Virus record (IMG/VR): IMGVR_UViG_3300028734_000019
Coordinates: 1-64,000 of that record
Direction: 5' to 3' (one strand)
Length of the DNA stretch: 64,000 nucleotides
Source of the DNA: an uncultured virus (IMG/VR IMGVR_UViG_3300028734_000019)
Lineage: Duplodnaviria; Heunggongvirae; Uroviricota; Caudoviricetes
Under the pieces are notes generated by a model that saw only the letters and a program-made list of their open reading frames with translations, had not been told where the DNA came from and made no database searches. How positions within the stretch are numbered: position 1 is the stretch's first letter; every line of letters begins with the position of its first letter. Positions 3,853 to 37,107 of the stretch are shown in pieces. The position numbers and the translations under genes were made by a program.

Positions 3853-4277
3853 TGATTACAAGCTTTGATACTAAATCAACAGATCATAATTTTTATTTTC
3901 CATCTGTTGCAGGGCCAGAAGGTAAAATTCCTTTTGCTGGAACTAATTATGGGGAGGAACCAAGGATAAAGAACTTCAAGCAATATTTTGGAGAATATCG
4001 AAAAGGATCTGATAAATTTGGCAAATTAGTTGAAAGAATAATGGAATTTTTAAGATTACCAGAATTTAAAGATCGTCTTAGTGAGAACGATGGACTAAAA
4101 TTTTTAATTTATGACTTTGAATCAAGATCACATATTAAAGTAGAAAAAATTAAACAATTATTAAGTAATGATACAAACCTTTATAGCTTTGATATTAAGA
4201 TAGATGATAAATTCATAACATTTTCTAATATAAACAAAACTAGAAAAGGTAGATATGTATCAGGTAGAAAAGATTAA
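3852..4277 (+). CDS. Hypothetical protein
   Basis: 141 aa ORF translationally coupled to the upstream gene (TAATG). Confidence 0.6.
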   Translation: MITSFDTKSTDHNFYFPSVAGPEGKIPFAGTNYGEEPRIKNFKQYFGEYRKGSDKFGKLVERIMEFLRLPEFKDRLSENDGLKFLIYDFESRSHIKVEKIKQLLSNDTNLYSFDIKIDDKFITFSNINKTRKGRYVSGRKD

Positions 4278-6092: not shown

Positions 6093-6844
6093 TATCTATC
6101 CATAATGAACCAGCCTGTGTTTGTTTCTGATCTAACTTTTTCTACTATAGCATCCATTTTTTCTTTACCTTGAGTAATCATATCAGCAGCGTTATATTGA
6201 AAACTTCCAGGCATATTGAAATTGAATCTTCCAACTGCTTGACCCATTCTCATTTGACATAATCCAATAAGATATTGCTTGAAATATACATTATCAAAAA
6301 GTTCTTCTTCTTCAATTCTTGCATATATCTCTAACATCATATCAGTATCAATCATAGTTAATAAATTTAGATGCTTATTTATGTGATTAAAATTAAATCT
6401 TAATGTATTAGTGGTCATTTTATTTATTTGATCTGCAAATGCACTAATAACTGATCTATATACTCCTAATTCACCTGCTGTTGTTACAAAACTTGTTAAA
6501 AATGGTTGATTAGTTACACCAAGATTTATTGATAATTGCGGAGCTTGTATACCAAGTCTAAACATATTAGGATTATCTATCTTTACAATTCTAACCAAAT
6601 CTTCAACTTCTGGAGGTAAAACAATCGTTTTATTTCTATGATATTCATCCGTGTATATGAAATCTTTTTTTAGATAATAAAACATTTTTATTTTAGAGAA
6701 TTGATAGTTTTTATAGAACCAATCTAATGCTTCTTCTCTAACTAAACGAATTATTTCCATGTCAGGTAAAATTTTATCAAAAAGTCCTGATATTGTCAAA
6801 TCACCTTGAACTATATCGACTAATTGATCAATTGTCATTGCCAT
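6092..6844 (-). CDS. T4 gp13-like neck (head-tail adaptor) protein
   Basis: C-terminal KQYLIGLCQMRMGQAVGRFNFNMPGSFQYNAADMITQGKE resembles the gp13 family C-terminus; 250 aa. Confidence 0.65.
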   Translation of the reverse strand: MAMTIDQLVDIVQGDLTISGLFDKILPDMEIIRLVREEALDWFYKNYQFSKIKMFYYLKKDFIYTDEYHRNKTIVLPPEVEDLVRIVKIDNPNMFRLGIQAPQLSINLGVTNQPFLTSFVTTAGELGVYRSVISAFADQINKMTTNTLRFNFNHINKHLNLLTMIDTDMMLEIYARIEEEELFDNVYFKQYLIGLCQMRMGQAVGRFNFNMPGSFQYNAADMITQGKEKMDAIVEKVRSETNTGWFIMDR

Positions 6845-24155: not shown

Positions 24156-25196
24156 ATGATAACCATAACAAACAATAAAATCTATTATAGCGAAGAATCA
24201 ATTTTATACCTAGATTCAATAGATAATGCTGATGTTATTGACCCAAACGATATATTACTTTTTTTGTCAGATACTGTTGAATTAGGTGAGAATTTAATAT
24301 TTAAAAGATTGTTTGATATTATATCACATAATGTTAATGATTTTAATGATATTTTTTATTCATCATTAGATGGATATTATATTGATCCATTTTTACAAGA
24401 AATTGAAAATAATCCAACTGACAAACTTGATATGGATTATCTAGAAGTTAATTGGAGCTGTAATAAGTATGATAATGAATTAAATGTAACATCTACAATT
24501 CACGGCGTATCAAATAACAATTCTGATTTTTATTCAATAGACTTTGTATCTCTTAATAATTTAAAAAAATTAAACATTTCACTCAATAAAAATTTCACTG
24601 TATATGATTATAATAAATTGATAGAGGGTAAAAATGAAGAAGATTCAAAATTTGAGTTAGGAGAAAAAACATTTACATTATTTGATTTGTATAACGCAAT
24701 ATTTAGTGAAATAACATTTCATGGTGGTCCTCTTGATAAAAAAGAAAGATTTGAAGAGCTAGAAAAATGTATTGAAGACGAAGATATTAATCCTGAAGAA
24801 TATAAAGAATTGAAAAGTTCTACACTAAATGATTTGATTGACAAATATGAAAAAGAGGATAAATATTTGGTTAAATATAAAGAGTTTAGAAGTAGAGTTG
24901 ATGAGAATAGAATTCAAATTAATGAAAATTTATCAAAATTGAAAGATTGTTTGTTAAATAAATTGAAGATTTATGATGATATTTATAACTGTGAAGGTAG
25001 TATAAAAAAATATTATAAAAAACTAACTAATATTGAATTTAATATGCAAACTCTTTACGGAGAAGATGAAGATATATTATTTCATAAATTTTGGCAAACT
25101 CCAAGATGTACATGTCCAAAAATTAATAATATTGAAATTTATCCTTCAAAAAAATGTTTAATTGATGATAACTGTCCTATTCATGGTAAAAATTAA
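24156..25196 (+). CDS. Hypothetical protein with C-terminal Cys/His metal-binding motif
   Basis: HKFWQTPRCTCP ... CPIHG. Confidence 0.6.
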   Translation: MITITNNKIYYSEESILYLDSIDNADVIDPNDILLFLSDTVELGENLIFKRLFDIISHNVNDFNDIFYSSLDGYYIDPFLQEIENNPTDKLDMDYLEVNWSCNKYDNELNVTSTIHGVSNNNSDFYSIDFVSLNNLKKLNISLNKNFTVYDYNKLIEGKNEEDSKFELGEKTFTLFDLYNAIFSEITFHGGPLDKKERFEELEKCIEDEDINPEEYKELKSSTLNDLIDKYEKEDKYLVKYKEFRSRVDENRIQINENLSKLKDCLLNKLKIYDDIYNCEGSIKKYYKKLTNIEFNMQTLYGEDEDILFHKFWQTPRCTCPKINNIEIYPSKKCLIDDNCPIHGKN

Positions 25197-25217
25197 AAAA
25201 TTAAAAAAGCTTCATAT

Positions 25218-25499
25218 TTAAATATGAAGCTTTTTTAATTTCTCTTTTCTTGTGTGCTTAATAGAAAACTCTAAACATTCTTCTGAAATACTTTCATAAG
25301 TTACTCCATTTATTGTCTTATTTGTCATCATTCCTATGTTATCAGAGTCCCAATAATCAGTATAGTAACAATTACCATATTCTGAAAATCCAATAATTGA
25401 CATAGGAATTTTATGATACCAAGGATATTCTTTAATGTCATTGCAAATTTCAGAACAAATAACAATGTCACCTATTTTAAATTTTCTTTCCATTTTCAA
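25218..25499 (-). CDS. Small SH3/KOW-like protein with RxxKLxxL tag
   Basis: FKIGDIVIC ... TRKEKLKKL. Confidence 0.55.
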   Translation of the reverse strand: MKMERKFKIGDIVICSEICNDIKEYPWYHKIPMSIIGFSEYGNCYYTDYWDSDNIGMMTNKTINGVTYESISEECLEFSIKHTRKEKLKKLHI

Positions 25500-25773
25500 T
25501 TGAATCTAAATGCTCTTTTTCAACTTCAGTCCATTTTTGAATAGGACATGTTCCTCCGATATCTTGATATGTTTTAGGTGTGAATATTTTTGCTTTTAAC
25601 GCACAGCCACATAAATTACATCTTGCAAATATATCAATCTCTCCTATATTTAACATCTCTTTATGCTCACACCCATCACATATTTCAATTCTTTTACTTG
25701 CAAGATCTGATTGCTCATCATTTGGGTTGAATGATATTCTCCAAGATTTGAAAATTTCTTCAATTTTATTCAT
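25477..25773 (-). CDS. Small Cys-rich zinc-binding protein
   Basis: RIEICDGC ... CNLCGC ... CPIQKW. Confidence 0.6.
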   Translation of the reverse strand: MNKIEEIFKSWRISFNPNDEQSDLASKRIEICDGCEHKEMLNIGEIDIFARCNLCGCALKAKIFTPKTYQDIGGTCPIQKWTEVEKEHLDSIENGKKI

Positions 25774-25848
25774 TTATTTAATTTTTTAATTTTAAGTTTA
25801 TTAATTAACTTATATATAAAATTAAATTAGTCCAAATTGATTTTTTTG

Positions 25849-25920
25849 TATGCCTAGAAGGACTCGAACCTTCAACTCATCATCCGTAGTGATACGTGTT
25901 ATCCATTACACTATAAGCAC
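25849..25920 (-). tRNA. tRNA-Arg (ACG)
   Basis: Manual cloverleaf: GTGCTTA/TAGGCAT acceptor, TATCA-CTACGGA-TGATG anticodon arm, GAAGG-TTCGAGT-CCTTC T arm. Confidence 0.85.
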
Positions 25921-25934
25921 ATGTAAGTATTTAC

Positions 25935-26420
25935 TCATTTATTTTTAATGACTTGATTAATGTTTTTTAATTTTTCTTTTCTTGAGTATGCTAATTTGTA
26001 TTTCATAACTCCTTCTATTTTATTATTTAAACATTGTTCCATTAAATATTCAGATTGATGTATTACATATTCTTTAGAACATTTTTCAATACTATCTCCA
26101 TAATGATTAGTATCAAATCCTATCATCCAATAATTATCTAATTTTTTATAATTATCTATTGTTACATCACCATCAATTTCTAAATTATCAATCCATTCTA
26201 AAAATGATTTAGAATCAAAAAATTGACCATATGTTAATCCTCCATGTACACTTATTGTATTCATATCATCATATGAAACTCCATATGATGGATGATTATT
26301 AGGTATTAATATATAACCATTACCCCATCCGAATTCCATTTTTAATGAAAATGTACTTAGTAGAGGTAAATTTTTAGTGATATAATTCTCAATTACTAAT
26401 GTGTAAATTCCGTATTTCAT
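25935..26420 (-). CDS. Conserved phage protein (VHGGLTY ... WMIGFDTNH) with RxxKLxxI tag
   Basis: Motifs common in phage hypotheticals; ends SRKEKLKNI. Confidence 0.6.
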   Translation of the reverse strand: MKYGIYTLVIENYITKNLPLLSTFSLKMEFGWGNGYILIPNNHPSYGVSYDDMNTISVHGGLTYGQFFDSKSFLEWIDNLEIDGDVTIDNYKKLDNYWMIGFDTNHYGDSIEKCSKEYVIHQSEYLMEQCLNNKIEGVMKYKLAYSRKEKLKNINQVIKNK

Positions 26421-26483
26421 GTTGATTTTTTAAATAAAAACAAAGATACACAATTTTTTTGTATATTCAATATTAAAAATTTT

Positions 26484-26894
26484 TTATTGTTGAATAACTA
26501 CATTATATGTAATTCCACCAGATTTCTTTTTTATTGCGTTTTTTAATTCTTCACTGTCTTTAATATCTTCCAAATTATCATTTTTAATATCATCTTTGAT
26601 TTTACTAATATCAGAATCAACATCCTTTAATTCTCCTTTTATTTCACCTACATTACCTACTATATTATCAACATCAGTATCAACATTTTTTATATTTTGT
26701 TGTATGTCATAAATAATATTTTTTATTTCACTAACTTCATTTGTTATTTGTGCAGTTATTGTGTCTATTTTTTTAGATAACTCTTCTATCTTTGTAATAA
26801 TATCATCAGTTCTTAATGATATATTTTCTTGCTCCGACTTAATATTTTCTACTAAATTATCCATATCATTTGTCTTTATGTATAAATAGTACAA
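26484..26894 (-). CDS. Coiled-coil protein, paralogous to the soluble part of 26936
   Basis: RTDDIITKIEELSKKI versus RTDAIISKIEELSEKI; heptad repeats. Confidence 0.6.
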   Translation of the reverse strand: MYYLYIKTNDMDNLVENIKSEQENISLRTDDIITKIEELSKKIDTITAQITNEVSEIKNIIYDIQQNIKNVDTDVDNIVGNVGEIKGELKDVDSDISKIKDDIKNDNLEDIKDSEELKNAIKKKSGGITYNVVIQQ

Positions 26895-26935
26895 ATTATA
26901 TTAAAATTTTTATACAATGATAATTTTAATGTAAA

Positions 26936-27475
26936 TTATTTTTTTTCTTTTTCTATATTATCTTGAATGTTATTTATGTCAAAGTCTACATTTTTTAAAT
27001 CTTCTTGTATATTATCAACATGATTTTGTATTTCATTAACGTCTGTGTCAGCATACTTTAACTCAATATCTATATCATCAACATGACTTTTTATGTCACT
27101 AACATCAGTATCTACATCTTTTAATTCAATATCAATATCAACTACATGAGTTTTTATGTCATCAACATCAACATTTATATGCTCTGTCATAGCTTCTATT
27201 TTTTCGGATAATTCTTCAATCTTTGATATTATTGCATCAGTTCTACTTCCACTTATCTTAGCAATATATCCTAAAACTGGTAATGCTACTCCTTGAAAGA
27301 AAACTGATACTAAATATTGCATCCATGCAACTAAACCTGATGGCTGACTAAAAAATAATGGAAATATAACTAATATTGTAATTATCCAAAACATTGTCAT
27401 ACTAGATAATGAATCTGATAAAAATATTGCAAATTTTTCTTGTGATGATTTAAATTTCTCGACTAATTTATTCAT
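26936..27475 (-). CDS. Two-TM membrane protein with acidic heptad-repeat coiled coil
   Basis: Two hydrophobic segments followed by DIDIELKxxDTDV repeats. Confidence 0.6.
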   Translation of the reverse strand: MNKLVEKFKSSQEKFAIFLSDSLSSMTMFWIITILVIFPLFFSQPSGLVAWMQYLVSVFFQGVALPVLGYIAKISGSRTDAIISKIEELSEKIEAMTEHINVDVDDIKTHVVDIDIELKDVDTDVSDIKSHVDDIDIELKYADTDVNEIQNHVDNIQEDLKNVDFDINNIQDNIEKEKK

Positions 27476-27543
27476 ATTTTTTTTATTTATATATAAATAG
27501 TGATAATTATATAAATAATATAAATTGTATTAAATATTTTTTG

Positions 27544-27626
27544 TGGTACTAGTTGGGCTCGAACCCACAACCTCCGAAGAGATCAGTTTTACATACTGAC
27601 ATGACTACCTGTGTCATATTAATCAC
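27544..27626 (-). tRNA. tRNA-Tyr (GTA)-like, imperfect acceptor stem
   Basis: TCAGT-ATGTAAA-ACTGA anticodon arm, long variable arm, GGTTCGAGCC T loop; two acceptor mismatches. Confidence 0.6.
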
Positions 27627-27635
27627 ATATTTTTG

Positions 27636-27760
27636 TGGTAGCAGATGGACTCGAACCATCAACTTCTGAGACATCGGCCCAGCACTCTATCCTTCGCTCG
27701 TTTCAAATTATTTATTCTAGTTTCATAATTATCCCCTTTGTGCTTTTGAGTTACACTACC
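27636..27760 (-). tRNA. tRNA-Ile (GAT)-like with 60-nt D-loop
   Basis: GGTAGTG/TGCTACC acceptor, ACTC/GAGT D stem enclosing 60 nt, CTGGG-CCGATGT-CTCAG anticodon arm, GATGG-TTCGAGT-CCATC T arm. Confidence 0.65.
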
Positions 27761-27773
27761 TTGTTGTTTATTG

Positions 27774-27852
27774 TACTGCCGAAGGGACTTGAACCCTCAT
27801 ACACCAATTACCTTGTTAATGACTGGATATAAGCCAGTGGGGATACGACAGT
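27774..27852 (-). tRNA. D-armless tRNA-Ile (TAT)-like RNA
   Basis: ACTGTCG/CGGCAGT acceptor, 7-nt linker TATCCCC, ACTGG-CTTATAT-CCAGT, 23-nt variable region, GAGGG-TTCAAGT-CCCTT. Confidence 0.6.
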
Positions 27853-27865
27853 GTGTTTTTTATTG

Positions 27866-27942
27866 TTGGTGAAGTGGGAATTGAACCCACATGTGACCAA
27901 TTAACCTTTCTACTACTTATCAGGCAGAGGGTATATTCACCA
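27866..27942 (-). tRNA. D-armless tRNA-Ile (GAT)-like RNA
   Basis: TGGTGAA/TTCACCA acceptor, linker TATACCCT, CTGC-CTGATAA-GTAG, long variable region, GTGGG-TTCAATT-CCCAC. Confidence 0.6.
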
Positions 27943-27953
27943 ATGTTATTTAG

Positions 27954-28027
27954 TAGTCCTGGTGAGACTTGAACTCACGACCTCCATCTTATCAGGATGA
28001 CAATCTAACCGACTGATATACAAGACT
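27954..28027 (-). tRNA. tRNA-Ile (GAT)
   Basis: Canonical cloverleaf, AGTCTTG/CAGGACT, TCATC-CTGATAA-GATGG. Confidence 0.9.
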
Positions 28028-28094
28028 ATTTTAGTTTATTTTTATTAATCATAACATACTATTAGTATGATACTAGTCATAATAATAAACTCTG

Positions 28095-28165
28095 TACCGA
28101 ATATGAGGTTCGAACTCATTTGGATTTCCTTATGAGAGAAATCTCTTTTCCACTAAGCTTCGGCA
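28095..28165 (-). tRNA. tRNA-Met/Ile2 (CAT), compact atypical D arm
   Basis: TTTCT-CTCATAA-GGAAA anticodon arm, ATGAG-TTCGAAC-CTCAT T arm. Confidence 0.7.
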
Positions 28166-28177
28166 TAATGTTCATTG

Positions 28178-28251
28178 AGGCCAAGGTGGGACTCGAACCC
28201 ACACAATATAGTTTTGCAGACTATCCCTTTATTCCATTCGGGCACTCGGTC
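28178..28251 (-). tRNA. tRNA-Cys (GCA)
   Basis: ATAGT-CTGCAAA-ACTAT anticodon arm, U discriminator, canonical T arm. Confidence 0.9.
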
Positions 28252-28258
28252 ATTTTTG

Positions 28259-28340
28259 TGGAAATAGAGGGACTCGAACCCACGAACTTGTGAAAGAACT
28301 GATTTACAGTCAGTTGCAATTGCCACTATGCGATATTTCC
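28259..28340 (-). tRNA. tRNA-Tyr (GTA)
   Basis: GGAAATA/TATTTCC acceptor, ACTGA-CTGTAAA-TCAGT, long variable arm. Confidence 0.9.
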
Positions 28341-28350
28341 ATTATCTTTG

Positions 28351-28436
28351 CGGTTCTGAGGAAAGTCGAATTCCCTATATCCCTTACGAGAAGCCTGAGT
28401 GACAGTCAGGTACACCAGCCGTTATGCGCCAGAACC
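28351..28436 (-). tRNA. tRNA-Asp (GTC) with long variable arm
   Basis: GGTTCTG/CAGAACC acceptor, CCTGA-CTGTCAC-TCAGG, 18-nt variable region, G discriminator. Confidence 0.75.
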
Positions 28437-29246
28437 ATTTTTATTTTTTATTTCATAATGTATTTCTGTGTGACAATTTTTACACACTAACATACATTTA
28501 TCAACTTCTTTTTTTAATCTTTCATATGAATAAGATTTTGCACTTATTCCAAAATCTTTTTGAGTAGGATCTTTATGATGAAAATCAAATACATCTATAC
28601 ATTTATCATATCCACACCTTTCGCATTTTCCTCCTTTATATTCAACAAGTTTCCTTTTTTTATCTTTTCTCCAACTAATAACATTATTTACAATATCATT
28701 TTTTCTTTTTATTTTATACTCTTCTTTAGATAATTTTTCTTTTTTATTTATAATTAAAATTTTAGATATTTGATATCTACCAATATTGAATTTTTTAGAT
28801 ACTTTTCTTGTACTTTTACATTCATCATAGTATTTTTGCATTTCAATAACGTCATCATTATTAACGTTTTCATATATTTTACAATAATTATTTTTTTTAT
28901 AATTACCATCATTGATATTATTTAATCTGCATATTTTTTTAATTTTATCTAAAGATAATTTAGTTTTTTCTATTATTTCTTCATATGTATTACCATTTAT
29001 TCGATATTCAATAACTTTTTTAAAAATCTCATCAGATATCTCATCACCAAAATCTATATTTGGTATATTTTTTAATTTTTTTAAATTTGATAATTTTGTG
29101 TTTTTTTTATTTAATTCAATATTATTATATAATTTTTTACAATGATAAGATATTGTACCTTTTGAACAATTTAATAATTCTGATATTTCATTGTATGTTT
29201 TTCCTTCTTTTCTTAATGATAATATTTTAGTTTTAATGCTTTCCAT
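28422..29246 (-). CDS. HNH homing endonuclease with N-terminal HTH repeats, inserted in the tRNA array
   Basis: GGKCERCGY ... FDFHHKDP ... CMLVCKNCH. Repeated GxTYxEI HTH motifs. Confidence 0.85.
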   Translation of the reverse strand: MESIKTKILSLRKEGKTYNEISELLNCSKGTISYHCKKLYNNIELNKKNTKLSNLKKLKNIPNIDFGDEISDEIFKKVIEYRINGNTYEEIIEKTKLSLDKIKKICRLNNINDGNYKKNNYCKIYENVNNDDVIEMQKYYDECKSTRKVSKKFNIGRYQISKILIINKKEKLSKEEYKIKRKNDIVNNVISWRKDKKRKLVEYKGGKCERCGYDKCIDVFDFHHKDPTQKDFGISAKSYSYERLKKEVDKCMLVCKNCHTEIHYEIKNKNGSGA

Positions 29247-29326
29247 AATTTATTTATATTTTTATTGTATATATAAAAATATATAATATTAAAAAAGATT
29301 AAAGTTTAAAGTTAATCATTTATTCG

Positions 29327-29398
29327 CGGGAGTGGGGAATTGCGACATCCCAACACTTTCGTTAACAGCGAAACGCTCTACCTTTGAGCTACACTCCC
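29327..29398 (-). tRNA. tRNA-Asn (GTT), atypical T loop
   Basis: GGGAGTG/CACTCCC acceptor, TTTCG-CTGTTAA-CGAAA; T loop reads GTCGCAA. Confidence 0.8.
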
Positions 29399-29404
29399 TT
29401 TTTG

Positions 29405-29492
29405 CGCACTGGATAGGATTCGAACCTACGTTGAAGATTACTCTTACTGGTTTAACAGACCAGACTTTTCGACCGACTAAAGCAACCAATGC
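29405..29492 (-). tRNA. tRNA-Asn (GTT) with long variable arm
   Basis: GCATTGG/CCAGTGC acceptor, CTGGT-CTGTTAA-ACCAG, variable hairpin AAGA-GTAA-TCTT. Confidence 0.8.
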
Positions 29493-29515
29493 ATTTTTAA
29501 TTTTTTGATAATAAG

Positions 29516-29588
29516 CGGGATATACGAGATTCGAACTCGCTCCGTGCACCGTGACGGGGTGACATCTTAACCATTTGACCTATATCCC
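29516..29588 (-). tRNA. tRNA-Asp (GTC)
   Basis: GGGATAT/ATATCCC acceptor, CACC-CCGTCAC-GGTG, canonical T arm. Confidence 0.85.
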
Positions 29589-29596
29589 ATTTTTTG

Positions 29597-29668
29597 TAAT
29601 GCGTATGAGAGTTGAACTCATCTTGCTAGGTTGAAAACCTAGAGTACTTTCCGATATACGAACGCATC
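29597..29668 (-). tRNA. tRNA-Glu (TTC)
   Basis: GATGCGT/ACGCATT acceptor, CTAGG-TTTTCAA-CCTAG. Confidence 0.85.
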
Positions 29669-29678
29669 GTGTTTTTTG

Positions 29679-29761
29679 TGGGAGCAGCCAGATTCGAACT
29701 GACGACCTAAAAGGTTACAAAATTTACAGTTTTGCGCCTGACCAATTTGAGCATTACTCCC
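29679..29761 (-). tRNA. tRNA-Tyr (GTA)
   Basis: GGGAGTA/TGCTCCC acceptor, CAAAA-CTGTAAA-TTTTG, long variable arm. Confidence 0.88.
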
Positions 29762-29802
29762 ATTTATTATTCATTATCTAGTATTTCAAAGAGCATTTAA
29801 AA

Positions 29803-29843
29803 ATAAAAAACTCAGTTCTTATTTTTAAGAACTGAGTTTTTTT
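29803..29843 (-). terminator. Intrinsic terminator of attenuator B, directly upstream of the tRNA array
   Basis: 11-bp stem CTCAGTTCTTA/TAAGAACTGAG, 4-nt loop, U tract. Confidence 0.85.
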
Positions 29844-29868
29844 ATTATTCACATAATAATTTTTTAAC

Positions 29869-30003
29869 TTATCCAGTTCTTCCTACATTATTTTCATCAT
29901 CATTAATATAATCATTATTAATCATATTAATACATATCTCTTCCATATTGTAATTAATATTACAATTGCGATAAATGCTGTATATGTTATTAATGTTATT
30001 CAT
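29869..30003 (-). CDS. Attenuator leader peptide B (44 aa), not in the ORF track
   Basis: MNNINNIYSIYRNCNINYNMEEICINMINNDYINDDENNVGRTG*. Its last codons contain AAGAACTG, complementary to the terminator 5' arm. Confidence 0.8.
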   Translation of the reverse strand: MNNINNIYSIYRNCNINYNMEEICINMINNDYINDDENNVGRTG

Positions 30004-30032
30004 GATATTTACTTTTAATTTATTATTTTTAA

Positions 30033-30111
30033 AAAAACTATTTTGAGTTTAGCTGCTAGTGTACTCGCATTGTCCCCATTACCAGTGAGGTGCTGTTCAA
30101 TATAGTTTTTT
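30033..30111 (-). ncRNA. Candidate structured RNA between tRNA-fMet and leader B
   Basis: GC-richer island closed by the AAAAAACTAT...ATAGTTTTTT inverted repeat, with internal hairpins CCTCA/TGGGG and TGC/GCA. Confidence 0.4.
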
Positions 30112-30116
30112 AATTG

Positions 30117-30188
30117 TTGCGCAGGCTGGACTCAAACCAGCGTTCTCAAGGTTATGAGCCTTGCGGGGTATCACTTCCCTACCGCGCG
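30117..30188 (-). tRNA. Initiator-like tRNA-fMet (CAT)
   Basis: C1:A72 mismatch (CGCGCGG/CTGCGCA), CAAGG-CTCATAA-CCTTG anticodon arm. Confidence 0.85.
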
Positions 30189-30195
30189 ATATATT

Positions 30196-30429
30196 TTAAT
30201 CTTTTTCTTTATCTATTTTCTTATAAAGTTTCTTAGCAATCTCTTTTGCTTTTGAATTCATTCCTTTTTCTGTTTTAGGAACTTCACTATAATCAATTTT
30301 GATTTTATCAGCAAACATTATAAATTTTTCAGTTCTATCAGATTTCCTTTTCAGTTCATCATAATTTTTTTGAATTTTATTTACTACTTCTGCTGATTCA
30401 TCAATTTTATTTTCTTTAACTTTTTTCAT
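30196..30429 (-). CDS. Small basic hypothetical protein inside the attenuated operon
   Basis: Likely start ATG 30429 (MKKVKEN). The longer track start overlaps terminator A. Confidence 0.55.
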   Translation of the reverse strand: MKKVKENKIDESAEVVNKIQKNYDELKRKSDRTEKFIMFADKIKIDYSEVPKTEKGMNSKAKEIAKKLYKKIDKEKD

Positions 30430-30432
30430 AAC

Positions 30433-30466
30433 AAAAAATCCAGTCATTTTTTAATTGACTGGATTT
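30433..30466 (-). terminator. Intrinsic terminator of attenuator A
   Basis: AAATCCAGTCA/TGACTGGATTT stem, 9-nt loop, U tract. Confidence 0.8.
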
Positions 30467-30491
30467 ATAATTATAGGCATAAGCCTTAATT

Positions 30492-30581
30492 TTATTTCTC
30501 AGTCAATTGGGATGTATCATCAATATTATTGATAATTTCGTTGTTACACATTTCCTCATTTATATATAGATTACGATACAT
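30492..30581 (-). CDS. Attenuator leader peptide A (29 aa), not in the ORF track
   Basis: MYRNLYINEEMCNNEIINNIDDTSQLTEK*. Its 3' codons contain AATTGACTG, complementary to CAGTCAATT in terminator A. Confidence 0.75.
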   Translation of the reverse strand: MYRNLYINEEMCNNEIINNIDDTSQLTEK

Positions 30582-30695
30582 CTTGTTTTGCTTTTTTATA
30601 TTAGTTTTTATTTTCTATAAAGTTTATTCTTTGTTATATATAATAGAAAAAAAGTCATTTTTTTCTATTTTTTATTTTCTTTTAATATGATAGTA

Positions 30696-30727
30696 CAAAA
30701 GTAATAAAAAGTTTTCATTCTACCAAA
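30696..30727 (-). promoter_or_regulatory. Bacteroidota sigma-A type promoter (TTTG-N20-TACTTTTG), copy 1
   Basis: Exact -33/-7 spacing, pointing into leader A and the tRNA operon. Confidence 0.7.
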
Positions 30728-30794
30728 CATTTTTCAATCTTTTTTTTATATTAATGAAAAACTATCATTTTTTTCTACTTTTAATATGATAGTA

Positions 30795-30826
30795 CAAAAG
30801 TAATAAAAAGTTTTTAATCTACCAAA
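30795..30826 (-). promoter_or_regulatory. Bacteroidota sigma-A type promoter (TTTG-N20-TACTTTTG), copy 2
   Basis: Near-identical direct repeat 99 bp from copy 1. Confidence 0.7.
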
Positions 30827-30859
30827 TGTTTCTAAACTTATTATTTAAATAAATAAAAA

Positions 30860-31096
30860 TTATAATATTGGTTCAATGACTATTGAATTTTCATAATTTT
30901 TTAATTCATCATAATATTCTTCTTCATCACATTCGTTTAGTTCACAATATTCTTCTTTTGATTCTCCCATATACACTTTTATGTACTCTGTTTTTGCATC
31001 ACTGGCTTCTTTAGGAGTATTAAATATACCTATGAAATCATTGTCTGACATTGTACCAGTGCTTGTGTAATAATCTACTTTATATTTCATATTCAA
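30860..31096 (-). CDS. Small acidic hypothetical protein
   Basis: 78 aa ORF, E/D/Y-rich. Confidence 0.55.
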   Translation of the reverse strand: MNMKYKVDYYTSTGTMSDNDFIGIFNTPKEASDAKTEYIKVYMGESKEEYCELNECDEEEYYDELKNYENSIVIEPIL

Positions 31097-31232
31097 TTAT
31101 TTTTAATTTGGAGTATAAAAGTAATAAAAAATTATCAATTTACAAAATGTTTATAATCTTATTTTTATAAAAATAACCTTTCTTTTCAATTAAGAAAAAA
31201 AGGTTATTTTTTATACTATATTATTTTTTATA

Positions 31233-31403
31233 TTACATTGCAAGTTCTTTTTCTTTCTTTGCATAAAATGAGAAGCCACCAACTTCTTTATTTATTCCTG
31301 GAACTCTGGTGAAATTTTTAAGGTTTACTACCTCTTTAATAACATTATACTCATTTTGAGTCAAAAAGAAAACTTTTGTTGATTTACTTGAATTAGTTGT
31401 CAT
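31233..31403 (-). CDS. 56-aa protein, tandem duplicate of 31497-31661 (not in track)
   Basis: MTTNSSKSTKVFFLTQNEYNVIKEVVNLKNFTRVPGINKEVGGFSFYAKKEKELAM. Confidence 0.75.
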   Translation of the reverse strand: MTTNSSKSTKVFFLTQNEYNVIKEVVNLKNFTRVPGINKEVGGFSFYAKKEKELAM

Positions 31404-31496
31404 AATGTTTAATTTAAATGATTTAAATGATTATTGTTTTATTTTCAATACAAAATTACTATATTTTTTTAAATTGTCAAAATATTTTATGATTTT

Positions 31497-31661
31497 TTAT
31501 AGAACATTTTCTTTCTTTGCATAAAATGAGAAGCCACCAACTTCTTTATTTGCACCTGGAACTCTGGTGAAATTTTTTAGATTTACAACTTCTTTAATTC
31601 CATTGTATTCTGATTTAGTCAAAAAGAAAACTTTTTCTGATTTACTTGAATTAGTAGTCAT
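31497..31661 (-). CDS. 54-aa protein, tandem duplicate
   Basis: MTTNSSKSEKVFFLTKSEYNGIKEVVNLKNFTRVPGANKEVGGFSFYAKKENVL. Start inferred from the paralogue. Confidence 0.75.
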   Translation of the reverse strand: MTTNSSKSEKVFFLTKSEYNGIKEVVNLKNFTRVPGANKEVGGFSFYAKKENVL

Positions 31662-31839
31662 AATTTTTAATTTAGATGATTTAAATGATTGTTGTTTTAA
31701 TTTCAATACAAATGTACTTCGGTTTGAATTGTTTACCAAATATTTTATTGTTTTTTAATATTTTACTTATATTTTCATTTATATTTTATAGTTTGATAAC
31801 ATTACAATATAAATATATACTGAAAATGATATTATAAAC

Positions 31840-32082
31840 ATGAAAATGATGAAAAATTTTATAGATTATAAATCTATGAATGAAAAATGGGATGAGAAAG
31901 TTAAAGTTAAACATACTGGTGAACATGCAGGTAAAACTATTGATGAGTTGGAGAGTGAATTATCATCACTTAAAAAAAGAAGTAAGAAATATCAAGATGA
32001 AGGCAAAGATGTTCCAAAGAGTATTATTGATCAAGAACAAGAAATTAATTTTGCTATTAGAGCAAAAAGAAATTGGAAATAA
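31840..32082 (+). CDS. Small protein with capsid-targeting-like N-terminus
   Basis: MKNFIDYKSMNE..., TATATA upstream, terminator hairpin at 32081-32109 downstream. Confidence 0.6.
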   Translation: MKMMKNFIDYKSMNEKWDEKVKVKHTGEHAGKTIDELESELSSLKKRSKKYQDEGKDVPKSIIDQEQEINFAIRAKRNWK

Positions 32083-32115
32083 AAAAAGCTTCTTTTTAGA
32101 AGCTTTTTTATTTAA

Positions 32116-32640
32116 TCAATGACAATTGACAGTTATATTTTTTAATTTGTTGAATATTCCATCATGTTCAAGTGCACTATAATATTCTCCATCATTATCT
32201 GAAAAACTAAAACAATACATCACTCCATCATTTACCTCTTTACCATCAATAACTTGAAGTTTTAATTTTCTTACATTGAAAAATTCTTTAAGTAATTTTT
32301 TTGAATATTTATCTTTAGCTTCTGCAAATGCTTCCCATCTTTCATTTCTATCTTCAATATATTTAAAATCATCAAAATCAGGAGCATCATTTTCCATTTC
32401 CAAATATCCATTCGATATTATTTCACTTGCCTTATCAATATCATTCTTAGTTTGATCACATATATCATTCCAGATAGTTTCTGAAACTTTATTTACAGAA
32501 TAATTTTCATCTCCATAATATAACTGTTCTTCCCTAAAAAGAATTTTTTTTACATCTTCCATACATTTCGGTTCAAATGGGAAGATAACTACAAAACTAC
32601 TTGATGATGAATTGCTTACAAATCCAGTTCTTATTTTCAT
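32116..32640 (-). CDS. GFVSNSSSSSF-leader family protein 1
   Basis: Starts MKIRTGFVSNSSSSSFVVI. Confidence 0.8.
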   Translation of the reverse strand: MKIRTGFVSNSSSSSFVVIFPFEPKCMEDVKKILFREEQLYYGDENYSVNKVSETIWNDICDQTKNDIDKASEIISNGYLEMENDAPDFDDFKYIEDRNERWEAFAEAKDKYSKKLLKEFFNVRKLKLQVIDGKEVNDGVMYCFSFSDNDGEYYSALEHDGIFNKLKNITVNCH

Positions 32641-32641
32641 A

Positions 32642-32833
32642 CTATTTTTTATTATCTGTTTTATCTGTTTTATCTGGTTTATCTTTTTTATCTGTTAAAT
32701 CTATTCTAATCTCTGACTTTTTAAAAATTGCGTTGAATATTTCCACTATAAAACTTCCAATTACAGAAATTATGAAAAAACAAAATATAAATGTCCAAAA
32801 ATCTGAAGTAGCATATTTTAATAATTCTAACAT
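32642..32833 (-). CDS. Small membrane protein
   Basis: One hydrophobic segment and a DKT-repeat tail; has its own TAATTTTG promoter element. Confidence 0.55.
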   Translation of the reverse strand: MLELLKYATSDFWTFIFCFFIISVIGSFIVEIFNAIFKKSEIRIDLTDKKDKPDKTDKTDNKK

Positions 32834-32905
32834 ATATTTTTATTTTTATTTTTATTTACAAAATTATAAAAAATATTTGATATTATAATATTTTAATCAA
32901 AAATA

Positions 32906-33544
32906 TTATAAATTTTTAGTTATTTCATCTAATTTATCTTTTCTTTTATATACTGTATTACATACTGGACATATAAGACCGTGCTTTTTTGTTTCCCACA
33001 TATAATTAAAATCTCCTTTTTTATCACATATTGGACAAGATTCATAACTTTCTTTTCCTAATAATTGATAATCTAAAGAATAATAATCATTATCAAAAGA
33101 ATAAAATTCACTATCACCATCAAGTAGACTGGTTATGCTGCACCATTCATCATCATCTTCCTTATATTTTTGTAATAATATTCGTAATTCTGATTTTGCA
33201 TCATCAGTTAATTTAGTGCTAAATTGCCATAAATCCCAATCTTCGTTATTACTAGTAGAAACTAAATAGCAATCTGCTACTTTTTTTATATAAGTATCAT
33301 AGTTACAACTTTGAAATGTTATTGCCTGATTTTTGTCTATATTTTTTAGCCCATTAATGTATAAATCATGCTCTTTTATTCTATATTTATCATATTGTTT
33401 ATCTCTTCCAGTATTACCCATATAATCATCATATTTCGATTTAATCATATGCGTAGCAAGATCACGTAAACTTTCAAAATTGTTGTTAGAAATTATAAAG
33501 CTACTAGATGATGAGTTACTTACAAATCCATTTCTTATTTTCAT
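32906..33544 (-). CDS. GFVSNSSSSSF-leader family protein 2, with zinc ribbon and RxxKLxxI tag
   Basis: MKIRNGFVSNSSSSSFII ... CPIC ... CPVC ... RKDKLDEI. Confidence 0.8.
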   Translation of the reverse strand: MKIRNGFVSNSSSSSFIISNNNFESLRDLATHMIKSKYDDYMGNTGRDKQYDKYRIKEHDLYINGLKNIDKNQAITFQSCNYDTYIKKVADCYLVSTSNNEDWDLWQFSTKLTDDAKSELRILLQKYKEDDDEWCSITSLLDGDSEFYSFDNDYYSLDYQLLGKESYESCPICDKKGDFNYMWETKKHGLICPVCNTVYKRKDKLDEITKNL

Positions 33545-33561
33545 ATTTTATATTATTTATA

Positions 33562-33864
33562 TTAACAATATCTAGTTCCAGTTATTAATTCTACTTCACT
33601 AATATCAACATTTAATGTTTCTGCTACTATTTTTGACTTTTCCATTATAACAGATATTGGTGTTATACTAGAATTTAATTCTTCACCATTTGAAATTATA
33701 TATCCAACAATATATCCATAATTAGACATTTCAACATCAAGTGCTTCTATTCCATTTTCAAATCCATTTTCAACTTCTTCTTCTGTACAATCTAATCTTT
33801 TGACTCCAATTATAACAAAACTACTTGATGATGAATTGCTAACAAATCCATTTCTTATTTTCAT
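33562..33864 (-). CDS. GFVSNSSSSSF-leader family protein 3
   Basis: MKIRNGFVSNSSSSSFVII. Confidence 0.8.
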   Translation of the reverse strand: MKIRNGFVSNSSSSSFVIIGVKRLDCTEEEVENGFENGIEALDVEMSNYGYIVGYIISNGEELNSSITPISVIMEKSKIVAETLNVDISEVELITGTRYC

Positions 33865-33885
33865 ATTTTATTTTTATTTTATTTT

Positions 33886-34347
33886 TTATCCATTTCGACC
33901 TGCACCAAAATAAACTTCTGATTTATTTAAGTCCAATCCCGATTTATTACTATAAAATGCATTATAAACGTTTTTATCATTTTTATTAAAGAATGACATA
34001 TCAATATCATAATCAATATCATCATAATCAGATGTCATAAAATCTGAATCACCTTCATTATTACATATATTAACAACTAAAAATAAATCTTCATCTTTAC
34101 AATCTTTAATATCTAAATTTGCATCTGTTTGAAATGAATCTACATAAATTTTATTGTTATTAAAATGTATATCATAATTAGTACTTTCTTTAATATTAGA
34201 TAAGGTTAATACTTTAACATCATAATCTAATTTAATATTATTATCTTTTGTGTATTGTGTAAATTCATTGTAATCATTAATCTTGGCTATGCCAACAATA
34301 AAACTACTTGATGATGAATTACTAACAAATCCATTTCTTATTTTCAT
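33886..34347 (-). CDS. GFVSNSSSSSF-leader family protein 4
   Basis: MKIRNGFVSNSSSSSFIVG. Confidence 0.8.
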   Translation of the reverse strand: MKIRNGFVSNSSSSSFIVGIAKINDYNEFTQYTKDNNIKLDYDVKVLTLSNIKESTNYDIHFNNNKIYVDSFQTDANLDIKDCKDEDLFLVVNICNNEGDSDFMTSDYDDIDYDIDMSFFNKNDKNVYNAFYSNKSGLDLNKSEVYFGAGRNG

Positions 34348-34365
34348 GTTATCATGTTTTTATTT

Positions 34366-35403
34366 TTATAATAAATGTGGTCTTGCTTCAGCAATTCCAG
34401 CATTTGTTACTTGATACCATTTAGGGTGATATTCAGATAAATTTTTTGCACCTCCATAAGATAATGCAGAACGAACACCGTTTATTAATCCTTCAATTAC
34501 AAATTTGACTCCTCCTTTAAATGGAATTGTTGTTGACTCTCCTTCCACATTTCTTTCCGCTTGACCATGAACAGTTTTTGTTTCTAATGATGCAGAGCCT
34601 CTATATCGTTTATATAAGCCATTAGGACTCTCTATAACCTTTCCTGGTGATTCTTCTGTTCCAGCTAATAGTGAGCCTAACATAATAGTAGATGAACCTA
34701 ATGCAAGAGCCTTTGATATATCTCCACTTGTTCTAATTCCACCATCAGCCATAACTGGTACTTTTGCAACATTTAAAATTTCTATTAAACTTGTAACATT
34801 TGGAACACCAAATCCTGTCTTGATTCTAGTTGTACAAAGACTTCCGCCACCAATACCACATCTTAGTCCATCAGCTCCCCAATTTTGCAAATCAATTGCG
34901 GCTTCTGCAGTTGCAATATTACCTGCAATTATATCCACTCCTAAATTCAATCCTTTTATTTCTTTAATCGCTTTTTTGACATTTATGTGATGTCCATGAG
35001 CAACATCAATAAGAATTACATTTACTCCAGATTCTATTAATGATTTAGACCTTTCTAAAAAATCTCCATTTGAGCCTACTGATGCCATTATTGGAATATT
35101 CTGTACATTAATAAAAGGATTATATAAACTATAATCAATTAATTTTTTTAATTTTTTGATTTCATCAACTTGTTCTTCAATAGTCATGAATCTATGAATA
35201 CATCCTACTCCTCCTAATTGAAACATTTTAAACGCCATTTCATGCTCACAAACGGTATCCATAGGTGATGCTACCAATGGTATCATCAACTCATAATTTG
35301 TAGATAGTTTTGTTGTTAATGAAATTTTATTTCTATGTTCTACTTCACTATAAAATGGTATAAGTTGAATATCATCATACGTTAACGCTATATTATTTGT
35401 CAT
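34366..35403 (-). CDS. guaB: IMP dehydrogenase / GMP reductase family, lacking CBS domains
   Basis: SPMDTV, IDVAHGH, GIGGGSLCTTR catalytic loop, ADGGIRTSGD, MLGSLLAG. guaB and guaC cannot be firmly separated by eye. Confidence 0.85.
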   Translation of the reverse strand: MTNNIALTYDDIQLIPFYSEVEHRNKISLTTKLSTNYELMIPLVASPMDTVCEHEMAFKMFQLGGVGCIHRFMTIEEQVDEIKKLKKLIDYSLYNPFINVQNIPIMASVGSNGDFLERSKSLIESGVNVILIDVAHGHHINVKKAIKEIKGLNLGVDIIAGNIATAEAAIDLQNWGADGLRCGIGGGSLCTTRIKTGFGVPNVTSLIEILNVAKVPVMADGGIRTSGDISKALALGSSTIMLGSLLAGTEESPGKVIESPNGLYKRYRGSASLETKTVHGQAERNVEGESTTIPFKGGVKFVIEGLINGVRSALSYGGAKNLSEYHPKWYQVTNAGIAEARPHLL

Positions 35404-35423
35404 TCTTTTATTTTCTTTTGTTT

Positions 35424-35870
35424 TTATTTTAGTGATAATAACTTTAAATATCTACTATCAAAATCAATACTTTTATTTATATGTATTAATAATGTTGGAT
35501 GCAATTTAAAACTCAAATCTAAATCAGGAATGATATTAATATCTCCAATATATTTTTTAAAGTTTTGAATCACATTTTTAGTATCAGTAATATTTGAATT
35601 TAATATAAAATTAATAATATTTAACAATTCAAAATTGTTTTTATCAATATGCCATATTTGACAATATGATAACCAAAATTCAGTAGTGTAATCTAGTTTT
35701 TGAGAACGATATATATTTTTAATATTAGATATAAATTCATCTTTTCCTAATTTACTAAAAAATGCATTAGCTTTTTCTATTAAATAATCAGGTGATGTAT
35801 TTATAATTTTATTATCATTTATCATAATTCCAAGAAAGTAAAATATGTTATGAGTTTGATTATTTGTCAT
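35424..35870 (-). CDS. Hypothetical protein with RxxKLxxL tag
   Basis: Ends SRYLKLLSLK. Confidence 0.55.
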   Translation of the reverse strand: MTNNQTHNIFYFLGIMINDNKIINTSPDYLIEKANAFFSKLGKDEFISNIKNIYRSQKLDYTTEFWLSYCQIWHIDKNNFELLNIINFILNSNITDTKNVIQNFKKYIGDINIIPDLDLSFKLHPTLLIHINKSIDFDSRYLKLLSLK

Positions 35871-35898
35871 AATATTATTAATTCTATTTTAAACTGGT

Positions 35899-36291
35899 TT
35901 AATAATTGTCGTTACTCACCATTTGAATATATGTGTTAATTACTCCTGTAATTCCATATTTTTCAAATTTTTGACGTAATGCATCATCTTCTTCTGTTGT
36001 ACGATCTTTAAATTCTGTTACTTCTCCATCTTCTAATCCACCTAGTGAATCACCTACAATAAGAGTATTGTAATCTTTTTCTCCAAAATAATTACCATCT
36101 GCTTCAATTCTAAATTCATCATCAAGTTTATTTGAAAAAAATTCAAATTTATCATAATCATCTTCAATTTCTTCAAATTCTTCATTTTTTATATTCAAGC
36201 ATTTTGCTAAATCATATATTGTAAGTTTAATTCCTCTTACTACAAATGATGAACTACTTGAATTACTTACAAATCCATTTCTTATTTTCAT
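35899..36291 (-). CDS. GFVSNSSSSSF-leader family protein 5
   Basis: MKIRNGFVSNSSSSSFVVR. Confidence 0.8.
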   Translation of the reverse strand: MKIRNGFVSNSSSSSFVVRGIKLTIYDLAKCLNIKNEEFEEIEDDYDKFEFFSNKLDDEFRIEADGNYFGEKDYNTLIVGDSLGGLEDGEVTEFKDRTTEEDDALRQKFEKYGITGVINTYIQMVSNDNY

Positions 36292-36308
36292 ATTTTTAAT
36301 TTATTTTT

Positions 36309-36749
36309 TTAATAATCTCCTCCACTTTGAATGTGAATTAAATCATTGTTGACATTTATTCCTGTTTCACATAAATAAGTTTCTAATCCATCTCCAGAAT
36401 CATCAGATGCTGAACCTTCATAATAACGATATTCTTTTCTTAATATTCTTAACAAATCTTCTCTAGATATATTAGGATATCCTTGTTCAATTATTTCATC
36501 TATCATTTCTTCATCTGATAAATTCTTACCTGAATCACAATAATTTTCAAATATATCTTTAATGCTCATTTCTTTAAGATTGTTAATCATCCAATCCGAT
36601 AATCCATTTGCAAAGTTGAATAATATAGAATTTTCGTCTAAATCAAATAACTTCATAAGAATATTTTTTGATATTTTTTCTCCATTTTTAATAGTAACAA
36701 TAAAAGAACTACTGCTACTATTACTTACAAATCCATTTCTTACTTTCAT
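36309..36749 (-). CDS. GFVSNSSSSSF-leader family protein 6
   Basis: MKVRNGFVSNSSSSSFIVT. Confidence 0.8.
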   Translation of the reverse strand: MKVRNGFVSNSSSSSFIVTIKNGEKISKNILMKLFDLDENSILFNFANGLSDWMINNLKEMSIKDIFENYCDSGKNLSDEEMIDEIIEQGYPNISREDLLRILRKEYRYYEGSASDDSGDGLETYLCETGINVNNDLIHIQSGGDY

Positions 36750-36753
36750 AATT

Positions 36754-37107
36754 TTATTTCTTTTTTAAAATTTCATTGATTTTTTTAGTATCAGCAATAA
36801 TAATTTGTCCTTCATCTGGACCACCTTCAACCTCTGCAATTATGTATGGACGAATAACATCATTTAAACTATCAGGTAAATCATAATCTTCCACGTCATT
36901 AGATATTATATACTCATAAATATCATAATTATATAATCCATTTTCATCAATAAGTTTTTTCAATAATTCTTTAAACGTGTCTAATGGAAAATCTTCATCA
37001 CCATCAGTAATTTTATCATAATCAACAATTTCAAGAAAATTCTCAGGTAATAAAATTACAAAAGATGAGCTACTTGAGTTACTCACAAATCCACTTCTTA
37101 TTTTCAT
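36754..37107 (-). CDS. GFVSNSSSSSF-leader family protein 7
   Basis: MKIRSGFVSNSSSSSFVIL. Confidence 0.8.
   Translation of the reverse strand: MKIRSGFVSNSSSSSFVILLPENFLEIVDYDKITDGDEDFPLDTFKELLKKLIDENGLYNYDIYEYIISNDVEDYDLPDSLNDVIRPYIIAEVEGGPDEGQIIIADTKKINEILKKK

Follow-up and report, generated by a model that had tools for sequence, protein, structure and literature searches.

Two homologous candidate attenuators ahead of the main tRNA array of an uncultured virus

Multivalent leader peptides are found at thrL and ilvGMEDA, and in T-box riboswitches it is again the status of a tRNA that controls termination; T-boxes bind uncharged tRNA directly, use no leader translation and also occur in tandem copies. 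In the excerpts of PMC3641672 the trp attenuator is described as a system where stalling of the ribosome favours read-through, and those of PMC1262725 cover the synthetase attenuators pheST, trpS and leuS and mention T-box riboswitches. Leader-peptide attenuation is considered likely in amino-acid operons of Flavobacterium (excerpts of PMC9723704). The reason why phages carry tRNAs is a long-open question, in which codon compensation is set against the replacement of destroyed host tRNAs (excerpts of PMC10264068). The same excerpts report phage tRNAs that resist anticodon nucleases, and in those of PMC11555353 a tRNA-Tyr of T5 and SP15 counters the retron-Eco7 defence.

The window analysed here is a stretch of 64,000 nucleotides at the start of a virus record of 76,108 bases; it is AT-rich (20-30% GC), with a genome GC of 24%. 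On its minus strand, the first-pass annotation had placed two attenuators in tandem, A and B, ahead of a tRNA array. Our comparisons suggest that these are homologous, ribosome-controlled transcription attenuators that probably stand in series at the head of the main tRNA operon and exert negative feedback on tRNA supply. Put simply, the viral tRNAs are probably expressed only at times when those of the host run short. As far as sequence can tell, the attenuator system is real, conserved and more general than the first reading could see.

Relatives of the locus lie on records of up to 501 kb that are rated 70% complete, and for this reason we regard the source as a jumbo phage. Two matches to a sigma-A-type promoter pattern of Bacteroidota lie upstream of the locus:

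30795..30826, minus strand: sigma-A-type promoter match, upstream copy (TTTG-N20-TAnnTTTG)
30696..30727, minus strand: second sigma-A-type promoter match, a local duplication (pattern match)

We take the TTTG of this pattern to be the -33 box. The -7 box, TAnnTTTG, is the one given in the excerpts of PMC9723704. Because of these two matches, a Bacteroidota host is suggested. Also upstream of the locus, positions 31740-31233 (minus strand) contain a tandem duplicate of a sigma-A-type promoter plus a short ORF of about 55 codons, and positions 32116-37107 (minus strand) contain seven ORFs that share the N-terminal head MK(I/V)R(N/T/S)GFVSNSSSSSF and adjoin an IMPDH-family gene and a short HisRS-like gene.

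Anatomy of the two gates

Attenuator A and the promoter-like element before it comprise the following features:

30635..30666, minus strand: promoter-like element of the tRNA operons (A-tract, YGAN, T-tract, TATATA), one match in the 76-kb record
30492..30581, minus strand: leader ORF A, 29 codons, with sensing codons at about 2-21 (ORF reading and codon counts)
30561..30568, no strand assigned: TATATATA inside leader A, a possible internal promoter element, which holds the Leu codon that is off the tRNA set
30500..30508, minus strand: antiterminator arm A, within the last codons of leader A (pairing and folds)
30475..30486, minus strand: small GC hairpin of 4 bp in the antiterminator loop of A
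30433..30466, minus strand: intrinsic terminator A, with arms at 30465-30456 and 30446-30437 and a U6 run at 30438-30433

The leader, the antiterminator pairing, the hairpin and the terminator that had been proposed for attenuator A are all present in the window. The ORF at 30581-30492 encodes the 29-residue peptide described for it, and the 9-nt complementarity joins the arm at 30508-30500 to a partner at 30461-30453, in the 5' arm of terminator A. Between the two lies the small GC hairpin (30486-30475), a possible polymerase pause hairpin. The RNA up to the terminator loop folds into the antiterminator at -19.2 kcal/mol (z -6.1) and the terminator region alone folds at -17.2 kcal/mol (z -5.2), with 0 of 200 shuffles as good for either fold. 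Terminator A is absent from the output of a simple terminator scan that allows loops of 3-8 nt; its own loop has 9 nt.

The sensing set was defined as Met, Tyr, Asn, Ile, Glu, Cys, Asp and Arg(CGN), taken from the tRNAs of the array plus Arg(ACG). The restricted composition noted for leader A is borne out, since 20 of the 21 codons from 2 to 22 belong to this set (the exception is Leu5), compared with a share of 0.42 for all coding codons of the 76-kb record (binomial p 4e-7). When all 924 ATG-started, stop-free stretches of 22 codons in the record were considered, a count of at least 18 of 21 was reached only in leader A, in leader B and from an internal ATG of B.

Downstream of terminator A we find the genes between the gates, attenuator B and the tRNA array:

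30196..30429, minus strand: Lys/Glu-rich orphan ORF of 77 aa that starts 5 nt after terminator A
30116..30188, minus strand: initiator-type tRNA-Met (CAT) with an unpaired 1:72
30029..30111, minus strand: lineage-specific structured insert, from the initiator tRNA to leader B (fold z -2.3)
29869..30003, minus strand: leader ORF B, 44 codons, with 37 of codons 2-39 in the set
29873..29881, minus strand: antiterminator arm of B
29805..29842, minus strand: intrinsic terminator B
29784..29794, minus strand: element 3' of terminator B that we take to be boxA-like
27545..29761, minus strand: main tRNA array, in the order Tyr, Glu, Asp, Asn, Asn, [HNH-type gene 29246-28422], Asp, Tyr, Cys, CAT, Ile(GAT), Ile(GAT), Ile(TAT), Ile(GAT), Tyr
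25848..25920, minus strand: tRNA-Arg(ACG), on the array strand, 1.6 kb past the array and behind three ORFs

The orphan ORF belongs to a family with 18 representatives at 50% clustering. It has no match over the cut-off in Pfam and none in the atlas, and no match by tblastn in 50,697 GenBank phage records; a search of bacterial and archaeal species genomes gave 75 candidate stretches, of which 0 were confirmed. Its predicted structure consists of two helices (pLDDT 75), and the model found no match in PDB or BFVD by Foldseek at E<=0.001. The structured insert matches no Rfam family at E<=1 and is present only in records that are identical to the window at that place. More generally, the spacer from the initiator tRNA to leader B attracts small structured RNAs, and at least three kinds of them occur at this hot spot (L009:5040-5155, L033:2050-2170, L034:7415-7465, L049:950-1055, L087:8680-8790, L045:8435-8505 and window 30111-30029). 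They gave no Rfam match where searched and, at a guess, are possibly self-cleaving ribozymes. Initiator-type tRNAs with a C in place of the U just 5' of the anticodon occur at L035:3329-3402 and L087:7265-7346.

Behind the switch the array has tRNAs for Met, Tyr, Glu, Asp, Asn, Cys and Ile, with Arg(ACG) further on, and their number depends on how they are counted: 8 genes by ARAGORN, 12 by Rfam and 16 anticodon arms by reading. At very low stringency ARAGORN returned 223 calls, mostly false, from which we used only array calls with support from Rfam or reading; the Ile(TAT) and the last Ile(GAT) of the main array were read by eye only. Many tRNAs of the array (29761-27545) are atypical and may be nuclease-evading variants or decaying copies: Asn, Asp and Ile have long variable arms, one Tyr has a shortened D-arm, one Ile gene carries a long insert, and there is an Ile(TAT). 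Putative homing endonuclease genes, HNH-type and others, occupy varying sites of the operon, each behind a TATATA word (window 29246-28422; L027:7280-7930; L031:7468-8150).

Conservation and pairing of the switches in related loci

Relatives were fetched by means of the small orphan ORF behind terminator A, a handle that is independent of the RNA elements. Leader A and its terminator were found in 30 of the 33 inspected loci; of the three exceptions, two are contigs that begin too late and one is a false protein hit. After dropping rows identical to kept ones (L048, L055, L056, L058, L084), those with no upstream DNA (L044, L053) and the false hit (L061), and with L025 represented by the window, 25 distinct A rows remained, corresponding to 18 clusters at 90% identity of the orphan protein, which in relatives is 42-95% identical to that of the window. 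Leader B was present in 17 of 20 and in 5 of 5 loci (20 distinct), the three misses being contigs that end less than 1 kb from the orphan ORF. The recurring unit consists of leader A, its terminator, the orphan gene, the initiator tRNA-Met, leader B, its terminator and the tRNA array, and this kept order supports the earlier placement of a small ORF and initiator tRNA between the gates and of the main array behind B. The start of the orphan ORF lies 2-8 nt past terminator A in 24 of 25 loci, and the promoter-like element lies 5' of leader A in 22 of 25.

The pairing is conserved along with the order. All 25 A switches can form an antiterminator helix of 7-9 bp, and all 20 B switches one of 6-9 bp. 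No more than 3 of 200 shuffles reach the leader-tail duplex of A at 24 of 25 loci. Because the antiterminator arm falls in differing reading frames, two in A (18 and 7 loci) and three in B, it is kept as RNA. Across 24 distinct rows the A antiterminator helix is 97.5% paired, and aligning the relatives for compensatory changes, as the first-pass annotation had suggested, did reveal one: at a single pair A.U is replaced by G.C in 3 rows (G.U takes its place in 3), and it is on this one pair that the covariation of the helix rests. The three G.C rows carry a C.A mismatch in terminator A at the same base, therefore the antiterminator seems to have been kept at the terminator's cost. On the tree the G.C label needs 2 changes, and the well-supported branches also allow one origin. 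Terminator A has 95.8% of its cells paired in the same 24 rows, with both-side changes at 3 pairs, and the small GC hairpin has 77%, with both-side changes in 2 of its 4 pairs. For B, the antiterminator helix is 100% paired with 2 pairs changed and the terminator is 96% paired with 4. In 24 of 25 loci the core of the A arm starts 6-14 nt before the stop codon, which places it within the ribosome footprint of 12-15 nt cited in the excerpts of PMC3641672; in L085, whose A is misaligned in alignment A4, the arm lies 30 nt before the stop. Most A folds include a weak hairpin on the Asp-Asp codons just 5' of the arm, which touches the arm in few of them, as judged from folds only.

Leader A could also be read as an untranslated AT-rich artefact and its hairpin as a plain terminator of the upstream genes, a reading that gains something from the low-complexity Asn/Ile content of the leader in a 24% GC genome. 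The composition is nevertheless unique in the record, the sensing part has no Lys or Phe codons, rare CGN, TGT and GAG codons are kept, and the frame is open in 25 of 25 loci at lengths of 14-38 codons. Together with the three rows that keep the antiterminator at the expense of the terminator, this makes the artefact extremely unlikely. We consider it very probable that A and B are both translation-controlled attenuators.

The first reading had regarded A as a second attenuator related to B, and the conserved locus, the pair counts and a covariance model trained on B alone agree with it. Each of the 18 A switches that were searched was found by the model with a score of 31-55 bits (42.6 bits and E 3.7e-6 for window A), and the switches of the Gln arrays described below scored 24-39 bits; other sites in the window gave <=19.6. 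One ordinary terminator scored 31.8 bits and overlaps the weakest A scores, so the low end of the scores is undiagnostic. The resemblance is one of RNA. In profile-profile comparison the A and B peptide families match weakly (hhalign probability 12.6%), and on that value peptide-level homology was set aside in favour of homology of the RNA switch; by these measures, then, A and B are homologous as RNA switches and weakly so as peptides. The relatives qualify two details of the earlier description that hold in the window. The words YRN, EE(M/I)C and DD are indeed common to both leaders here, but EE(M/I)C is an insertion peculiar to the B of this lineage, and a pattern search for the shared YRN..EE(M/I)C words returned only close relatives and three loci without tRNAs. 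Likewise the pairing cores of A and B differ in the window, but 13 of 20 B loci share their 5-bp core arms with a typical A, and the B of the window is a derived compensatory form. Extra matches to the B model in relatives (L104, L107, L108, L109) were rejected as ordinary terminators without leader or tRNA.

Order of the gates, codon match and proposed mechanism

From the arrangement of the intervening DNA, A and B are probably wired in series in this window, with a single transcript that would run through both gates. Between them lie the orphan ORF and one or two CAT tRNAs, whose first base is unpaired where the ends are readable, with one weak His call; most CAT tRNAs behind B are of another type. 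A parallel arrangement would have A gate only the orphan protein and the initiator tRNA, and would give B a promoter of its own, either a TATATA or a tRNA-internal one. Two of the 17 loci with both gates (L035 and L045) do have a promoter motif before B, 8 of the 15 motif-free loci have a bare TATATAnA, and endonuclease genes and structured RNAs are often inserted between the gates. The window and 6 other loci, on the other hand, have neither motif nor TATATAnA, there is no terminator between the gates in 17 of 17 loci, and in four loci leader B starts 6 (L083), 22 (L085), 28 (L027) or 30 nt (L054) after the initiator tRNA. Downstream of terminator B the boxA-like word is present at 15 of 20 loci, downstream of terminator A at 0 of 25, which also argues against parallel wiring, and we consider that arrangement improbable.

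A serial arrangement could also include a bypass, in which the TATATA in leader A is a phage promoter. Its transcripts would lack the start codon of the leader, adopt the antiterminator fold by default and get past A, so that A would gate only transcripts from upstream promoters. TATATA, which resembles an intergenic promoter-like word, occurs in 24 of 25 A leaders as opposed to 1 of 20 B leaders. Of the 25 TATATATA sites in the record, 17 are outside genes of at least 70 aa, and the bypass would account for the single off-set Leu codon. Against it, the codon pair Tyr-Ile(AUA) alone yields TATATA, B also keeps a conserved AUA codon, and 8 of the 25 TATATATA sites lie in genes. We think the bypass somewhat unlikely; it is compatible with the serial feedback switch as an added layer.

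The codons of the leaders follow the tRNAs behind them. Sensing codons belong to the set at 0.93 (of 392) in A and 0.91 (of 512) in B, and when the sensing parts of 20 A leaders were aligned, 33 of 39 non-synonymous codon variants stayed in the set, compared with 38% expected, in a repetitive-codon alignment that is itself uncertain. All 23 Arg codons in the A sensing regions are CGN, a minority Arg codon type in the genome. Some off-set codons are conserved as well: 21 of 25 A leaders keep a Leu, and many B leaders keep Ser(AGY) and Lys. As a separate codon-match test, we fetched 11 other tRNA regions from the related genomes. Seven of them proved to be arrays with a leader and terminator (two Lys/Phe/Trp/Ser/His, four Gln, one Leu), and the remaining four, with single or degenerate genes, have no matching leader (L072, L074, L088, L091). 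The Lys/Phe/Trp/Ser/His leaders have 0.81 of their codons in their own set and 0.06 in the set of the main array; Gln leaders are 0.30 Gln (background 0.024) and the Leu leader is 0.38 Leu (background 0.084). A leader-by-array matrix indicates that leader codons match what the operon supplies, and all four kinds of leader and array occur on a single 501-kb record. The promoter-like element of attenuator A was matched before the Lys/Phe/Trp/Ser/His leaders and one Gln leader, and a related form, read by eye, precedes the Leu leader.

Several other features of these regions were observed. In L035, leader B (3925-4017) has CGA and CGC codons and the array (6254-6427) has Arg(TCG) and Arg(GCG) genes, a hint of tuning at the level of codons. 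In the Leu attenuator (L092:2330-2751), as in A, a protein gene separates the terminator from the first tRNA. Two tRNA-like genes at L072:2690-3015 (G001:320694-321013, minus strand) have unusual anticodon loops, and one of them was called as Stop(TTA); the AT-rich ORF ahead of them contains several TTA codons and an in-frame TAA. The array of L083 ends in a Stop(TTA) call, and a CTA-anticodon tRNA stands alone in L088.

The mechanism we propose works as follows. The leaders would sample Met, Tyr, Asn, Ile (including AUA), Glu, Cys, Asp and Arg-CGN codons. When the tRNAs are plentiful, the ribosome would reach the stop codon and cover the antiterminator arm, the terminator would form and transcription would stop. 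When any sensed tRNA is scarce, a ribosome stalled before about codon 19 would leave the arm free to pair with the emerging 5' arm of the terminator, and transcription would read through; with no ribosome on the leader the arm would also be free, and the antiterminator would form first. Passage of gate A would yield the orphan protein and the initiator tRNA, and passage of both gates the elongator tRNAs, with the boxA-like site placed after the last gate. This output would restore the sensed tRNAs and close a negative feedback loop on tRNA supply. The likeliest trigger, we infer, is that infected cells lose host tRNAs, whether to defence nucleases or through general decay (for background, see the excerpts of PMC10264068 and PMC11555353).

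The full-length fold favours the terminator, in window B by about 10 kcal/mol, and read-through should therefore need kinetic trapping. In constrained folds of the window, antiterminator minus terminator is -0.7 kcal/mol for A and +10.3 for B, and in 12 of the 17 pairs of gates it is A that has the relatively stronger antiterminator (Wilcoxon p 0.03, with kin that are not independent). With that reservation about kin, the constrained folds fit A as the easier first gate, and the folding energies would allow two gates to give tighter or graded control.

The gates could instead sense general translation arrest or amino-acid starvation, the codon match being historical. By the folding argument an unloaded leader should open the switch too, and with eight amino acids sampled most slowdowns would register. 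This alternative sits poorly with four leader families that each follow the content of their own array and with substitutions that remain in the set; moreover, starvation is not cured by extra tRNA and the eight sampled amino acids do not make one biosynthetic family. We judge it quite improbable. From the codon match, the gates quite probably sense a shortage of specific tRNAs.

A wider reading, which we offer tentatively as a possibility somewhat short of even, is that of a genome-wide tRNA homeostat used as counter-defence, in which the tRNA genes form modules, each preceded by a leader that samples its own codons, the gate of the main module has two tiers, A opens first even if initiation fails, and the orphan protein may block a host tRNA nuclease or rescue translation. 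If this were true, the leaders would record which tRNAs Bacteroidota hosts destroy in infection. Independently of it, a codon-matched sensor before each array makes the question of tRNA carriage directly testable: expression on demand fits replacement, and each leader predicts the tRNA loss that would induce its array. The orphan ORF behind gate A becomes a candidate stress-induced anti-defence or translation factor, and the leaders could serve to report specific tRNA depletion in Bacteroidota. The doubled gate would be a regulatory module that was duplicated and kept in lineages where the neighbouring protein is down to 42% identity.

Comparison with known systems

The phage tRNA regions involved in counter-defence (PMC11555353 and PMC10264068, as excerpted) resemble this locus in having arrays able to replace depleted host tRNAs, but the tRNA there is driven by a strong promoter. 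The strings 'attenuat' and 'leader' have 0 occurrences in the main text of these two papers. In a search of abstract openings, with subscription journals mostly outside its scope, we found no paper on leader-peptide control of tRNA genes or of phage tRNA expression.

T-box riboswitches are alike in that tRNA status sets termination; the phage leaders differ in that we propose they need translation. No match to a T-box (stem I with specifier, antiterminator bulge; Rfam model) was found at E<=1 in window positions 25000-32500, and for neither this region nor eight related loci did Rfam give a riboswitch, T-box or leader family.

The closest parallel for the doubled gate is mgtCBR of Salmonella, where two leader ORFs, mgtM and mgtP, act on one transcript (excerpts of PMC3641672), as we infer for A and B. 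According to the same excerpts, mgtM and mgtP sense different signals (ATP and proline) and work without intrinsic terminators. Unlike them, A and B are homologous, use the same codon set (0.93 and 0.91), have an intrinsic terminator each, and are separated by a gene and an initiator tRNA.

The leader-peptide attenuators (trpL, thrL, ilvGMEDA, pheST, trpS, leuS) have in common with the phage switches a short ORF with regulatory codons, an antiterminator over its 3' end and an intrinsic terminator. Features of the trpL/thrL/ilvL type found here are regulatory codons, a U-tract terminator downstream, a mutually exclusive antiterminator and a match between codons and output. The switches described here differ from this type in lying on a phage and, as proposed, in three further respects. 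Their output is an orphan ORF and tRNA genes instead of biosynthesis or synthetase genes; they would sense eight tRNA types together; and their leaders appear to lack a protector hairpin that would sequester the arm, so an untranslated leader should open the gate. Attenuation, so far of enzymes for amino-acid synthesis or loading, would thus be extended to the tRNAs themselves. Tandem attenuators are already known from mgtCBR, and what this locus appears to add is a new use and arrangement of a known mechanism, attenuation with tRNA as its output.
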